Source: Candidatus Staskawiczbacteria bacterium
GTDB lineage: Bacteria > Patescibacteriota > Minisyncoccia > Minisyncoccales > Staskawiczbacteraceae
DNA: 60,482 nt
Direction of reading: 5' to 3'
Assembly: GCA_026395175.1 (NCBI GenBank)
Contig: JAPLZF010000016.1
Coordinates: 1 to 60,482 of the forward strand
The notes beneath the pieces are model-generated. The model was not told the origin of the DNA and did no database searches. It saw nothing but the letters and a program-made list of their open reading frames with translations. Below, one piece after another: positions 1,614 to 43,834 of the stretch. Position 1 is the first letter of the stretch. The number at the start of each line of letters is the position of its first letter. Both the position numbers and the translations under genes were made by a program.

Positions 1614-1642
1614 GCATATCCGACCAATTTAGTCGGATATGC
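1614..1642. promoter_or_regulatory. 29-bp inverted repeat resembling an IscR type-1 operator
   Basis: GCATATCCGAC-CAATTTA-GTCGGATATGC lies 29 nt upstream of the Rrf2 gene. The core ATATCCGACCAATTTAGTCGGATAT matches most positions of the recalled consensus ATASYYGACTRWWWYAGTCRRSTAT. Confidence 0.55.
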
Positions 1643-1745
1643 TTTTTTTCAGCTTATCAAAATTAGTATAGAATGTCAATATTTATGCAAAAAAAAATGC
1701 CTGATGTCGTCACCAGGCCTGGCGGGTTGAGCGAAGTGGTCTTCA

Positions 1746-1922
1746 CTATTCCAACATCGCGGTTGTTCCCGCGATTCCATCGTCTAACCCATGAGAGTAA
1801 TAAGCTTCTGCGACTTCTTCAAGCGCCGCACATATCGCAGTAAACAACTCGGGATAATAACCCGCTAGCTGAAGCTCCACCTCTTTCTTCTTTTGATCCA
1901 AGAACCCCGTATTCATAGCCAT
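1746..1922 (-). CDS. orphan small protein (58 aa), GC-rich islet 1, paralog of 1964..2173
   Basis: Read by hand because it is below the ORF-track cutoff: MAMNTGFLDQKKKEVELQLAGYYPELFTAICAALEEVAEAYYSHGLDDGIAGTTAMLE. Has an AGGAA-type RBS. Shares the motif E-x-V-A-x-x-Y-Y-x-x-G-L-x-x-G-x-x-G with the upstream ORF. Confidence 0.6.
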   Translation of the reverse strand: MAMNTGFLDQKKKEVELQLAGYYPELFTAICAALEEVAEAYYSHGLDDGIAGTTAMLE

Positions 1923-1963
1923 GATCTTTTTCCTTTCTATTCTTGTTTCAAGGTTTTGCTCGT

Positions 1964-2173
1964 TTATCCTTGCGAGCTTTTCTTAAAACGTTCGACTAGA
2001 CCCGTCATTCCGGCGGTCAACCCTTGTTCATAGTAGGATGTCGCAACACTCTCCATCATGTCATCAATTGCTTGTTGTTGGACTGGGGATAGAGAATGAC
2101 CCTCTAACGCCATAGCCAACAATGATTTGTGAGTCTCTAATGAGTCTCTGTTGATCTCTAGCTTGTTCGCCAT
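1964..2173 (-). CDS. orphan small protein (69 aa from the ATG at 2173), GC-rich islet 1
   Basis: GGAGA lies 7 nt upstream of the ATG at 2173 (the ORF-track start is 2194). Paralogous C-terminal motif ESVATSYYEQGLTAGMTG. Confidence 0.6.
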   Translation of the reverse strand: MANKLEINRDSLETHKSLLAMALEGHSLSPVQQQAIDDMMESVATSYYEQGLTAGMTGLVERFKKSSQG

Positions 2174-2205
2174 TGCACTATCTCCTATACCCATATTGGG
2201 TTGTT

Positions 2206-2232: not shown

Positions 2233-3168
2233 TTATTTGCTTTTGTCAATAGTTTTTGCCAGTTTTAATTCTCGCAGAGACAGGCCCATAAATATTACTA
2301 ATAATAAAACTGTGTTTAGGGGAGCCAGCCAAAATGGAAAATCTTTCCCAAAGGCTTCCAAAACCATAATTCCGCCCAAAATCCCAATAGAATACATAGC
2401 TCCGTTTTTTAAATATGCAAATTTTGCAATTACATCTGTTCCGCGAATTGTGAATTCTCTAACAATATAAGCCCCAAGGCCGTTTCCTAAAAATATTAAA
2501 GGAATAGAAATTGTAAAAGCAAATGCGCCGACAACTCCGTCAATTGAAAAAGTTGCGTCTAAAATTTCCAAATATAAAATTTTACTCCAGGCTGACACAT
2601 TACTGCTCAATAATTGTTTTTCTTTTTCTTCTGCATTCTTTTTAAAACCGTCTGTAATAAAAAATGCCATAGAACCAATGGCTGCCGACAAAGCTAAAAT
2701 TGGATTCACTTTTACCGAAAAATAAATTACGCCTACAAAAAATAAGGAAGCTACAGCATAAAACCAAACAGATTGCTTGTGTATAAATTTTTCCGCCAAA
2801 AAAGCATATTTTTTCTCTTCCATAAAAAGCCAGCTTAAAGCCACTAAAAACAAATAAACCCCGCCCGCCAGAAGCAAAAGTGGCTGCGACTTTTCAACAT
2901 AGGCATTAATTTCCGGGGTTGGATGAAAAACAAAACCTATCACCTGCAAAAAAGAAAATGCCGGGTTTGCCAGCCAAACAATCAAAAACGGCAAAACTCC
3001 GCGAACCGCGAACACTGCGATAAAAAGTCCCCAAGTTAAAAAAAACTTTTTATATTTTTGAGGGAGAGTTTTTAAAACATGGGCGTTGATAATTGCATTA
3101 TCCGCGCTGGAAATTATCTCAAAAAGCGCTAGTCCGAATATAATTACAATAATTTCTATGATATTCAT
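2233..3168 (-). CDS. TerC/DUF475-family integral membrane protein
   Basis: 311-aa polytopic ORF. N-terminal EIISSADNAIINA motif is typical of the TerC superfamily. Confidence 0.6.
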   Translation of the reverse strand: MNIIEIIVIIFGLALFEIISSADNAIINAHVLKTLPQKYKKFFLTWGLFIAVFAVRGVLPFLIVWLANPAFSFLQVIGFVFHPTPEINAYVEKSQPLLLLAGGVYLFLVALSWLFMEEKKYAFLAEKFIHKQSVWFYAVASLFFVGVIYFSVKVNPILALSAAIGSMAFFITDGFKKNAEEKEKQLLSSNVSAWSKILYLEILDATFSIDGVVGAFAFTISIPLIFLGNGLGAYIVREFTIRGTDVIAKFAYLKNGAMYSIGILGGIMVLEAFGKDFPFWLAPLNTVLLLVIFMGLSLRELKLAKTIDKSK

Positions 3169-3632
3169 AATATTTTGATATTATAATCAAGTATTTTATC
3201 GCCTTCGCCGAAAAGAAAATCTGCTTCCAGCTTCTTGCCCTGCAAAACATGTGGCAGCCAATGCGTGTCATCCGGCCACATCTCTTCATAAGGTATTTGG
3301 TCAAAAGTAAACCAGGCCGGCATCATTTCTTCAGATTCTGCCGGCTCGCCCAGCCAATCTTTTGCCACAAACAAGGACACATCCTGGTTGCCGTGCTGTT
3401 TTTCTTCATCTGCAAACCTAAAATGAAACAAGCCGACTTTCTCCGGATTTTTTACCTCAACTCCAATTTCTTCCTTTGTTTCCCTTATTGCAGTATCTAA
3501 AATATTTTTATCAATTTGCGCATCAAATTTACCGCCAGTTCCATTCCATCTGCCTGCTCCAAAACCGCGCTTCTTCATTGCCAAAAGAATCTTGTCATTC
3601 TTAATCAACAAACACAGAGTTGTTTGTTTCAT
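3165..3632 (-). CDS. NUDIX hydrolase (MutT-like)
   Basis: Nudix box GGKFDAQIDKNILDTAIRETKEEIGVE. Internal ATG at 3632 (MKQTTLCLL) chosen because the longer ORF overlaps the upstream gene. Confidence 0.85.
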   Translation of the reverse strand: MKQTTLCLLIKNDKILLAMKKRGFGAGRWNGTGGKFDAQIDKNILDTAIRETKEEIGVEVKNPEKVGLFHFRFADEEKQHGNQDVSLFVAKDWLGEPAESEEMMPAWFTFDQIPYEEMWPDDTHWLPHVLQGKKLEADFLFGEGDKILDYNIKIL

Positions 3633-3636
3633 GCGC

Positions 3637-3873
3637 TTACTGCTTCTTTTTTTTGCTGAAAAAGAAAATATATATAATTTCCAATATCCCCAATGTATTA
3701 ACAACCAATAGCACAATAAACCATGGCTTGCTTCCATTCCTTGCGGCCTTCCACAAAGCAATCCCTTTCCAAATAGCCGTCCACAATACTAAGATCAGAA
3801 TTAGCGCGGTAAAACCGGCGGCTAAAGACTGAAAACCCATCACGTTTATAAATTGTTGATAATTTCCGTACAT
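3637..3873 (-). CDS. small two-TM membrane protein (DUF5652-like, CPR-typical)
   Basis: 78 aa. WKGIALWKAARNGSKPWFIVLLVVNTLGILEIIY motif, recalled from small Patescibacteria proteins. Confidence 0.55.
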   Translation of the reverse strand: MYGNYQQFINVMGFQSLAAGFTALILILVLWTAIWKGIALWKAARNGSKPWFIVLLVVNTLGILEIIYIFFFSKKKKQ

Positions 3874-3877
3874 AATT

Positions 3878-4339
3878 TTATTTTTTAATATTTTTAATAA
3901 TTTCGTATCCTGCGACCCCGAAGGATACGGCTACGTTTAACGATTCTTTTTTGCCTTGCATGGGCAAAAAAATTATTTTGTCTGATTTTTGTAATATTTT
4001 TTTAGAAATTCCTTTTACTTCATTGCCCAATATCAGCGCCAAAGGAAATTTTGGCCTAAACTTTTCATAAGAAATTGCCTTCTTGTCCTGCTCTAATGAT
4101 ATTATACTTATTTTATCTCTTTTTAACCTGTCAATCAACCTGCCCGCCTGCTTACAATATTCAAAAGGAATTGCTTCTTCAGCGCCCAGTGCGGTTTTAG
4201 AAATCTTGTGATGAGGAGGTTTGCCGGTAATCCCGCACAAAAATATTTTTGAAACCCCCAGCGCGTCTGCTGTGCGGAAAATTGAGCCGACATTTTCCAA
4301 GCTTCTTATATTGTCGCAAATTACATAAAACTCTTTCAT
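3878..4339 (-). CDS. SpoU/TrmH family RNA 2'-O-methyltransferase
   Basis: 153 aa. NVGSIFRTADALGV and C-terminal LNVAVSFGV motifs of the SPOUT fold. Confidence 0.8.
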   Translation of the reverse strand: MKEFYVICDNIRSLENVGSIFRTADALGVSKIFLCGITGKPPHHKISKTALGAEEAIPFEYCKQAGRLIDRLKRDKISIISLEQDKKAISYEKFRPKFPLALILGNEVKGISKKILQKSDKIIFLPMQGKKESLNVAVSFGVAGYEIIKNIKK

Positions 4340-4406
4340 TTTTAAATTCTATCTCAAAACCATAAAAAAACAACCCAAAAGGGCTGTTTTAGCGAGCCAA
4401 ATAAAT

Positions 4407-4988
4407 TTATTCTGAAAATCTTTTTTCCACTTCCTCCCAATTCACAATATTCCACCAATTTTCTACAAATTTTGCTCTGTCATTTTTGTAATCCAAATAA
4501 TATGCGTGTTCCCAAACATCCAGGCACAACAAAATTTTCCGTTCGGGGTAAAAGTTAACATTATGTTTTTCAACTTGTATTATTGACATCGCTCCGGTCA
4601 AAATTGCCCAGCCTGACCCCTCAACCGATTTTGCTGTTTCAGAAAATTCTGTTTTAAATCTTTCAAAACTTCCAAACTCTTTATTTATTGCCTCTAAAAT
4701 TTTTCCTGCCGGCTTATTTTTCCCAGAGCTAGCTGGCGCCATAATTTTCCAAAATATTTCATGCAAAATATGGCCCCCAATCGCAAAAGATAATCCCTTA
4801 AGTACTGATTTTTGATCTAACTCTGTGTTTCCATTCCTTGCATCTTGAATTTTATCTATTAAAGTATTTGCTGCATTAACATAAGCTGCATGGTGCTTGT
4901 CATGATGCAAAGTCAAAACCTCTTCAGACATATATGGCTCTAAAGCGTTGTAGTCGTATGGCAATTTTGGTAAATTAAATTTTTCCAT
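4407..4988 (-). CDS. sodA: Fe/Mn superoxide dismutase
   Basis: LPKLPYDYNALEPYMS, HHDKHHAAYV and DVWEHAYYLDYKNDR signatures. Confidence 0.95.
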   Translation of the reverse strand: MEKFNLPKLPYDYNALEPYMSEEVLTLHHDKHHAAYVNAANTLIDKIQDARNGNTELDQKSVLKGLSFAIGGHILHEIFWKIMAPASSGKNKPAGKILEAINKEFGSFERFKTEFSETAKSVEGSGWAILTGAMSIIQVEKHNVNFYPERKILLCLDVWEHAYYLDYKNDRAKFVENWWNIVNWEEVEKRFSE

Positions 4989-5000
4989 AAGATATTTATT

Positions 5001-30057: not shown

Positions 30058-30166
30058 ACATAAAATTTAATTTATTTATTTTTTTATTTGACAAAAAAAT
30101 AATTAAGAATAATATAAAATAAAGTAAAGCGAACATCTGTTCGTTCACAACATAAGGAGAAATGCC

Positions 30167-30346
30167 ATGGGGCATAACGGAAAAGGCAAGCCGAAAAAAC
30201 CTTTCAAGAAACGTCTTGACCATTCTCTTGAAAGGTTTGCCCGCTGGTGGTATTCCGGGAATCGTCCCGTAAATCCCAGGACTGGACTAAAACAAGTCTC
30301 AGCCATATACGACCCCAAAAAAAACAAACCAAACACCAAAATTTAA
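30167..30346 (+). CDS. orphan basic small protein (59 aa), GC-rich islet 4
   Basis: Hand-translated MGHNGKGKPKKPFKKRLDHSLERFARWWYSGNRPVNPRTGLKQVSAIYDPKKNKPNTKI. AAGGAG lies 7 nt upstream of the ATG. Confidence 0.5.
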   Translation: MGHNGKGKPKKPFKKRLDHSLERFARWWYSGNRPVNPRTGLKQVSAIYDPKKNKPNTKI

Positions 30347-43262: not shown

Positions 43263-43286
43263 ATAAAAGAGGAGTCCGAAGACTCC
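43263..43286 (-). terminator. terminator of islet 5 (UUCG-capped)
   Basis: Minus-strand GGAGTC-TTCG-GACTCC followed by a T-rich tract. Confidence 0.7.
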
Positions 43287-43310
43287 ATGTGGAAAACTCG
43301 CGTACGAGTT

Positions 43311-43703
43311 CTATTTTTGTCGCGTAAAGCAGAACTGGTCCAACAAATTCCTGGCAACCAAGGCTATTTCGGTTTGTTCGCCATTGCCATCCTTGTCGTC
43401 AGATGCCGTGTTCAGAAATTCTTCCAGTTCAACCAGCAACTCTGCTGGAATTTCGATTGGCATGAGCGGACCCTGTCGGTCAGAAATGCGGAGCGGTCCT
43501 ATTGGCCTTGGCACAGACTCGCCAACAAGTATGACTTGCTGGGTTTCCTCGTTTATCATACAAATCAGCTGATGAGGCGTGCCATTAGCGCCATTACAAA
43601 CTCTCACCGGCGGACTTATGTCATGCCACCCTGGGCACGTCGAACTTGGATAAACCTTCCCGTTTTTCCCCAGAGCAGCCATTATCTCCTGGATAGTAGC
43701 CAT
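43311..43703 (-). CDS. orphan protein (130 aa), GC-rich islet 5
   Basis: GGAGAGGAG lies 7-15 nt upstream of the ATG at 43703 (MATIQEIMAALGKNG...). No family recognised. Confidence 0.6.
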   Translation of the reverse strand: MATIQEIMAALGKNGKVYPSSTCPGWHDISPPVRVCNGANGTPHQLICMINEETQQVILVGESVPRPIGPLRISDRQGPLMPIEIPAELLVELEEFLNTASDDKDGNGEQTEIALVARNLLDQFCFTRQK

Positions 43704-43801
43704 TGCTATGTTCTCCTCTCCCTTGTAAAAGGGCGTTGTATTTCCCAAAAACTCCGATACTAAAACATTACAACGAATCAAAATTTTTTACAATAGAAAA
43801 C

Positions 43802-43834
43802 AAAAATGTAGGACTTCCGATGTCCTACATTTTT
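43802..43834. terminator. bidirectional terminator downstream of groEL
   Basis: ATGTAGGAC-TTCCGAT-GTCCTACAT stem, flanked by an A-run and a T-run. Confidence 0.75.

Follow-up and report, generated by a model that had tools for sequence, protein, structure and literature searches.

The 60,482-nt contig JAPLZF010000016.1 (assembly GCA_026395175.1) of Candidatus Staskawiczbacteria bacterium, an ultra-small bacterium of the candidate phyla radiation (CPR), is the whole stretch of DNA analysed here (hereafter, the window) and carries a G+C-rich patch at positions 1690–2200, islet 1, whose content and origin we investigated. Islet 1 contains two small open reading frames (ORFs) on the minus strand, genes A and B, encoding proteins of 69 and 58 amino acids. 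An earlier note on this DNA had placed both between an IscR-type operator and the gene for a DUF475 protein and had described a G+C hairpin with a U-run 3′ of the two ORFs; we agree on both counts, as an 8-bp G+C stem at 1718–1699, 3′ of gene B, runs into a T-run. In order of transcription, the unit consists of promoter, leader, Shine–Dalgarno (SD) site, gene A, SD site, gene B and terminator, about 550 nt in total, and is referred to below as the cassette. It fills the space that separates the DUF475 end from the −35 hexamer of rrf2. Its elements, and the host features that border it, are as follows.

2244–2249, minus strand: −35 hexamer TTGACA of the cassette promoter, read from the sequence, inside the last DUF475 codons
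2221–2226, minus strand: predicted −10 hexamer TAATTT of the cassette promoter, 17 nt after the −35 hexamer
2207–2234, no strand assigned: perfect 28-bp palindrome followed by a T-run, the DUF475 terminator, overlapping the cassette −10 hexamer
2182–2186, minus strand: SD site AGGAG of gene A, 8 nt before the ATG at 2173
1964–2173, minus strand: gene A, 69 aa, isoelectric point (pI) 5.1, predicted helical hairpin (ORF, alignment, AlphaFold2)
1931–1935, minus strand: SD site AAGGA of gene B (SD scan)
1746–1922, minus strand: gene B, 58 aa, pI 4.3, paralogue of A (ORF, alignment, AlphaFold2)
1690–1718, minus strand: cassette terminator of the intrinsic type, GCCTGGTG-ACGA-CATCAGGC and then a T-run (inverted-repeat reading)
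1651–1679, minus strand: resident rrf2 promoter TTGACA-17-TAAGCT, on the host side of the downstream junction
1614–1642, no strand assigned: Rrf2/IscR-type operator palindrome, a host element outside the cassette

Islet 1 stands out from its host in composition. Its G+C content is 45.8%, compared with 36.2% for the whole window and 29–34% for the immediate flanks, placing it at the 98.6th percentile of 511-bp windows (1.4% of them reach 45.8%); the elevation is real, and its earlier rendering as half against one third was somewhat overstated. The shift is greatest at the third codon position, where G+C content (GC3) is 0.49 in A and 0.51 in B against 0.33 ± 0.06 in the 53 long ORFs of the window, indicating that amino-acid composition is not its cause. 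Synonymous codon choice under the host table was also atypical (−0.199 versus +0.186 ± 0.072 for 125-codon host blocks; z = −5.3), and none of 5,000 host blocks was as atypical as A and B together. An SD-like word of at least 4 nt within 20 nt of the start is missing in 45 of the 53 long ORFs, the leaders being AT-rich, whereas both islet genes have ribosome-binding sites, AGGAG for A and AAGGA for B. The contrast that the earlier note had drawn between SD-led islet genes and SD-less housekeeping starts is thus genuine, at least within the window, and so is the departure from host G+C and codon usage that it had proposed to measure.

Genes A and B are real, paralogous protein-coding genes. Both carry the motif E-x-V-A-x-x-Y-Y-x-x-G-L-x-x-G-x-x-G, as had been reported, and although BLASTP of A against B returned no alignment, their BLOSUM62 local score of 58 was reached by none of 5,000 shuffles of B (22.8 ± 4.5). 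Different codons are used at 13 of the 17 residues identical between them. Nucleotide identity at codon positions 1, 2 and 3 was 0.53, 0.53 and 0.33 for A and B, 0.55, 0.70 and 0.39 for A and P0004 (a 60-aa homologue described below), and 0.54, 0.61 and 0.32 for B and P0004; across the three members, third positions are saturated and positions 1 and 2 conserved. This saturation marks the A/B duplication as old. Gene callers place the start of A at the ATG at 2194 (76 aa); we preferred the ATG at 2173, which has AGGAG 8 nt upstream and yields an N terminus, MA..N, like those of B and P0004.

The proposal that selection acts on a protein rather than an RNA is upheld by third-position saturation in all three family members, by the folding of the mRNA body (1740–2195), which is no better than that of dinucleotide shuffles (z = −0.6), and by Rfam, which returned no match in the islet at either gathering or E-value thresholds. 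We considered whether the ORFs might be spurious and the islet a structured RNA, given that RNA genes often account for G+C-rich patches in the AT-rich genomes of CPR bacteria and that, taken whole, the unit folds more stably than shuffled sequences (z = −3.95). That excess is attributable to the two terminator hairpins and is gone once they are left out, and together with the codon-position conservation and the empty Rfam result this largely refutes a structured RNA, which we regard as barely credible. Separately, a 6-bp G+C hairpin at 1958–1977 holds the stop codon of gene A in its loop and lacks a U-run when read along the coding strand. Such a hairpin might serve to process the mRNA or to couple the two genes.

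A profile built from A and B, searched against 1.84 billion representative proteins, recovered only A, B and the 60-aa P0004 (E = 1.4e-5). Two further hits were rejected as repeat proteins matching over a short stretch only. In P0003 (1271 aa), V-A-x-A-Y-Y-x-x-G matches a repeat unit read as tetratricopeptide repeat (TPR)-like over about 18 residues, which we judged not to be homology; this 18-residue resemblance is the extent of the likeness to TPR proteins, whose helix-turn-helix repeats are 34 residues long, and Pfam gave no TPR match. A word-index protein search with A, and then with a three-sequence profile, returned known members only. JGI metagenome contigs and IMG/VR, scanned by pattern and by tblastn, yielded no family member, nor did INPHARED phages (tblastn with A and B) or PLSDB plasmids (tblastn with P0004). 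When every fetched locus, the window and the viral contig L090 (see below) were searched in six frames with a profile, nothing came up beyond A, B and P0004. These three proteins had no hit below E = 0.1 in Pfam, PHROGs, PADLOC or NCBIfam, and a PDB sequence profile search gave no match. By these sequence searches, A, B and P0004 constitute a new small-protein family with no known relatives, the immediate value of which is descriptive.

P0004 is encoded at loci L007 and L008, in a different organism whose native genes are AT-rich and SD-less, such as the LtaS-type gene next to P0004 in L007 (37% G+C, leader ...AAAAATAATG). With the 123-aa ORFan that follows it (GC3 0.59, SD AAGGAG), the P0004 gene forms a patch of 46% G+C with SD sites and its own TTGACA promoter, preceded by an apparent tRNA gene end (by eye) and a terminator. 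The 123-aa partner has a single other homologue, P0007 (76% identity), and metagenome and viral scans gave no further match to its family. The gene for P0007 is found behind a related promoter on L089, a contig of 1.3 kb whose small genes share one strand and whose G+C content is about 46%. L007 also holds a second G+C-rich gene at 3134–3697 on the minus strand (52% G+C, GC3 0.56, 187 aa, purine-rich leader, no recorded Pfam hit); with it, the occurrence of a G+C-rich, SD-led islet in an AT-rich, SD-poor genome recurs in L007.

To place islet 1 in its genomic context, we compared the site among relatives. GTDB species representatives scanned with the DUF475 protein yielded Candidatus Staskawiczbacteria genomes with 75–85% identity (L009–L019), in most of which the order nudix–DUF475–gap–rrf2–nifS is kept. 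In the window, the gap from the DUF475 stop codon to the rrf2 ATG at 1585 is 647 nt; in the relatives, the corresponding region is as follows.

L009, L011, L017 and L019: empty gap of 58–105 nt
L010 (for example, L010:6937–7480): 87-aa ORF, G+C-rich patch
L015 (for example, L015:6934–7500): 128-aa ORF, strong SD site, AAGGAGGAGG, own TTGACA promoter
L018: 83-aa membrane protein
L013 (for example, L013:6907–9180): 2.2 kb with two larger genes
L012: rrf2 not recognisable; 159-aa Cys-rich ORF between DUF475 and nifS
L014 and L016: neither rrf2 nor nifS beside DUF475

No homologue of A or B was found in the gap of any relative with rrf2 beside DUF475, or by a six-frame profile search of 80 related loci. 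This syntenic comparison, which the earlier note had proposed, shows the islet to be absent (four gaps are empty and others hold unrelated genes), arguing that it is not an old core gene. From the gene contents listed above, the DUF475–rrf2 junction is an insertion hot spot for variable cargo in Candidatus Staskawiczbacteria. The host side of the junction is stable: the rrf2 promoter keeps the form TTGACA-17-TAAnnT in L010, L011, L015, L017, L018, L019 and the window, and the operator core CCGAC-N7-GTCGG is conserved between the −10 hexamer and the rrf2 start in the window and in most relatives that keep rrf2. This conservation supports a separate proposal of the earlier note, that of an IscR-type operator in this region (window 1614–1679).

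Over 100–2676 and 3387–5000, strains from other lake samples show no difference from the window; they diverge by about 20% in two short patches, 25–99 (the 3′ end of nifS) and 2677 to about 3300 (the 5′ half of DUF475), a pattern that looks like a local recombination mosaic. Logan contigs contained no single-nucleotide polymorphism (SNP) within 100–2676, islet included; we dropped the idea that this SNP-free stretch is a transferred block, because the strains are identical elsewhere too, and it is uninformative on the islet. Neither reads nor contigs showed a joint that skips the islet.

Around the cassette lie nifS, rrf2, DUF475, nudix, sodA and a putative RNA methyltransferase, named partly by eye. 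We asked whether A and B might be Fe–S cluster accessory proteins serving the adjacent rrf2–nifS–nifU operon. IscX is small, acidic and helical; A and B share these properties and lie directly upstream of rrf2–nifS(–nifU). We nevertheless consider an IscX-like role highly improbable. Between A/B and the operon lie a strong terminator and an rrf2 promoter and operator that are separate and conserved, and the four relatives with empty gaps possess the same operon. A and B have no NCBIfam match and no Pfam match at E ≤ 10, the family of IscX itself (PF04384) included, and P0004 adjoins an LtaS-type gene rather than isc genes.

The cassette promoter, too, shows homology. The 65 nt from 2249 to 2185 of the window (TTGACA, 17-nt spacer, TAATTT and leader) align with the region upstream of P0004 with a score of 45, against 18.9 ± 3.4 for shuffles (z about 7.7; none of 2,000 shuffles reached 45), and are a clear outlier among the 49 TTGACA segments of the window, the runner-up scoring 30. 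The −10 hexamer has the T-A-x-x-x-T pattern and 17-nt spacing of the conserved rrf2 promoters of relatives; a consensus promoter scanner, which needs four of six matches in the −10 hexamer, did not report it. An IMG/VR scan with the consensus of the window and L007 promoters gave one hit, on the 62.8-kb viral contig IMGVR_UViG_3300033233_000038 (L090), whose promoter is identical to that of L007 at 28 of 30 positions (z = 9.6) and also aligns with that of the window (z = 5.7). Eleven kilobases of L090, read by eye, encode a ParB-like protein, a DUF932-looking protein, a cell-wall hydrolase-like protein (3D-domain-like) and a protein with a GroES-like C-terminal half, and its genes are SD-led (AAAGGAG, AGGGAGG, GGAGGAGG). 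In four contexts, namely L007, L089, L090 and the window, where it occurs as a single copy, the promoter module TTGACAAAAG...GTAAWTT precedes unrelated genes.

Promoter similarity scores are inflated by generic features (a T-run, TTGACAAAA and an A-rich spacer), and for this reason we put weight on the within-window control distribution and the 28/30 identity. The promoter region of islet 4 (30060–30170), another G+C-rich islet of the window, scored z = 4.9 against the L089 promoter region, and L013:6969–7015 scored z = 4.3; these likenesses may reflect the generic pattern rather than common descent. In L090, about 60 nt after the shared promoter, a terminator-like hairpin, AAGCTCTG...CAGAGCTT, followed by a T-run lies within 3060–3210 on the minus strand and precedes a 164-aa gene whose C-terminal half looks GroES-like. 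This arrangement of promoter and hairpin could be a short RNA or an attenuator.

The upstream junction of the cassette is compact. Its −35 hexamer sits in the end of DUF475 (…ACT ATT GAC AAA AGC AAA TAA) and its −10 hexamer in the upstream arm of the terminator palindrome. A transcript starting about 7 nt after the −10 hexamer would lack the 5′ arm of the palindrome and would be expected to escape the DUF475 terminator. The regions homologous to the palindrome at 2207–2234 are not palindromic in L007 and L090, so the palindrome may have arisen after insertion.

These results bear on whether A and B are instead native: a lineage-specific, fast-evolving pair whose G+C content and SD sites are kept by selection for expression level or mRNA stability, and which relatives have lost or replaced. 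The presence of other G+C-rich, SD-led units in the window and L007, possibly a regular gene class, speaks for native genes, and mobility genes were not seen at the islet. Against native origin stand the lack of a homologue in the gap of every relative with rrf2 beside DUF475 and in all 80 related loci, the unrelated context of the sole homologue, P0004, and the promoter held in common with a phage-like contig. The mRNA body has no excess structure, and the two paralogues hold their GC3 near 0.5 despite saturation. We therefore judge native origin unlikely, though not negligibly so. Because synonymous sites are saturated and yet both genes have a GC3 near 0.5 in a host of GC3 0.33, A and B were most likely duplicated in a donor pool before import and arrived together. 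The earlier description of a recently acquired single-gene module holds as to acquisition, which empty sites, codon usage and SD sites support, and needs correcting in that islet 1 is a two-gene unit with its own promoter; 'recent' here means only since the split from relatives whose DUF475 proteins are about 75–85% identical.

We modelled A and B, each alone, with AlphaFold2 on the three-sequence alignment, an analysis that the earlier note had also suggested. Both were predicted, with moderate confidence, to form helical hairpins: A with helices at 9–23 and 30–67 (predicted local distance difference test (pLDDT) score 73), and B with helices at 5–19 and 24–44 and a low-confidence Gly-rich tail (pLDDT 69). 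A conserved L-x-G lies at the hairpin turn, near residue 24. All three family members are acidic (pI 5.1 for A, 4.3 for B and 4.6 for P0004), and the grand average of hydropathy (GRAVY) is −0.40 for A and 0.02 for B. The most conserved stretch, E41...G58 in A, is for the most part located past the section of helix 2 within reach of helix 1, and its A, Y, G, L, G and G residues, at i/i+3/i+4 spacing, form a small-residue helix-packing face. The position of this face beyond the intramolecular packing points to an intermolecular interface, and the models suggest that A and B may act as homo- or heterodimers (A–B, A–A or B–B) or clamp a partner protein. Foldseek searches with the A model retrieved generic helical hairpins only, with best E values of 1.4 (PDB) and 0.47 (BFVD). 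With low confidence, we favour a role for A and B as small, dimeric accessory binders or inhibitors such as mobile elements carry.

Tandem small paralogues with a conserved N terminus, a conserved L-x-G near residue 24 and GxxxG-type motifs are also what might be expected of a two-peptide bacteriocin or of a precursor pair for ribosomally synthesized and post-translationally modified peptides (RiPPs). The properties of A and B make such a role scarcely probable. They are acidic (pI 4.3–5.1) and not strongly hydrophobic by GRAVY, and the residues before the conserved Gly are E, A and T, in contrast to the double-glycine pattern of class IIb bacteriocin leaders. No called neighbour in either genomic context has a transporter, immunity or modification-enzyme domain, and no leader match was found in NCBIfam or Pfam.

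Taken together, we consider it probable that islet 1 is a horizontally acquired, self-contained two-gene unit, resembling a phage moron, that came from a mobile gene pool and encodes dimeric hairpin proteins. This reading draws on the coding status and paralogy of A and B, their foreign composition and SD sites, the terminator, the absence of the unit from syntenic sites and the homology of its promoter; expression, dimerization and any target are what we infer. The source would be a G+C-richer, SD-using gene pool shared with phage-like elements, from which a complete promoter–SD–A–SD–B–terminator unit would have entered the variable site between the DUF475 end and the −35 hexamer of rrf2–nifS, bringing in A and B together as old paralogues. 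Their products would be acidic helical hairpins of about 60 aa acting as dimers or clamping a partner.

By the criteria of Hendrix and colleagues for phage morons, as summarised in PMC2920897, the cassette is moron-like in lying between genes that are adjacent in relatives (a gap of 647 nt versus 58–105 nt in L009, L011, L017 and L019), in having its own promoter (TTGACA-17-TAATTT) and factor-independent terminator, both recognized by sequence only, and in its atypical G+C (45.8% versus 36.2%; GC3 about 0.50 versus 0.33). It further occupies a hot-spot site with differing cargo, and a related unit, that of P0004, exists in another context. It differs from a moron in residence: its flanks are chromosomal housekeeping genes (DUF475 and rrf2–nifS) in conserved synteny rather than genes of a phage, the 60-kb window shows no evident prophage, and the link to phages runs only through the promoter shared with a viral contig. 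With genomic islets and ORFans acquired by horizontal gene transfer, the cassette shares atypical composition and codon usage, patchy distribution and a lack of detectable homologues, and differs in being unusually small (about 550 nt), a complete expression unit, and SD-led in an SD-less genome. Integron cassettes are normally promoterless, whereas islet 1 has a promoter; the inverted repeats at its ends are the two terminator hairpins only (no dedicated attC model was run). Homologous promoters upstream of unrelated genes were reportedly described as putative mobile promoters by Matus-Garcia et al. in 2012. The occurrence of TTGACAAAAG...GTAAWTT before unrelated genes in four contexts recalls these, but the cassette promoter travels with at least one homologous gene (A, P0004) and is far from a genome-wide repeat family.

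Several observations weigh against horizontal acquisition as a moron-like unit. No integrase, transposase or clear target-site duplication was seen (no dedicated integrase search was made), and the sole flanking repeat, an imperfect 11-nt one, contains TTGACA and may be merely two promoters. Since the searches of phages, plasmids and IMG/VR contigs turned up no member of the family, the phage link comes down to about 30 nt of promoter and the context of the partner gene. The GC3 of P0004 is only mildly raised, at 0.41 versus 0.37–0.42 in its neighbours. The structure models are moderate in confidence and derive from three sequences, and structure searches with the A model gave nothing (all E > 0.4). 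The organism reaches about 150x DNA depth in lake samples, but metatranscriptome contigs of the same samples gave no usable coverage of it.

An extension of horizontal acquisition, to which we give rather little credence, is that CPR chromosomes are seeded by tiny 'chromosomal morons', each a promoter, SD site and terminator around its cargo, that shuttle between CPR phages and genomes without a dedicated recombinase, with A and B representing a dimeric hairpin family engaged in phage–host or symbiont–host conflict. Entry would occur at terminator/promoter junctions, perhaps by DNA uptake and microhomology at the −35 box. If so, SD sites would amount to a translation channel apart from the SD-less genes of the host, and A and B might be, for example, inhibitors of a defence or phage protein. 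Apart from this extension, islet 1 bears on how genes are gained by CPR bacteria, the genomes of which are tiny: comparison with empty sites in relatives sets the bounds of a foreign expression unit to within a few bases. An SD-led gene in an SD-less genome offers, for lineages of this kind, a simple way to recognize imported genes from sequence, and it raises the question of how strongly SD-led messages are translated in an SD-poor host.

The other G+C-rich islets of the window, islets 2–5, were compared for composition and SD sites, and islet 5 also for architecture. The islets share no boundary repeats, the sole match being a 14-nt identity between islets 1 and 5 that we judged to be chance. 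Islet 5 (43263–43830, minus strand) has the same architecture as islet 1: a groEL terminator, an AT-rich promoter-like stretch and GGAGAGGAG precede an ATG at 43703, and a 130-aa ORFan is followed by a UUCG-capped terminator; the GC3 of a longer, 156-aa frame is about 0.50. Elsewhere in the window, positions 59178–59296 on the minus strand give a full-length match to the Rfam LOOT RNA (RF03000), at 84 bits against a gathering score of 46.

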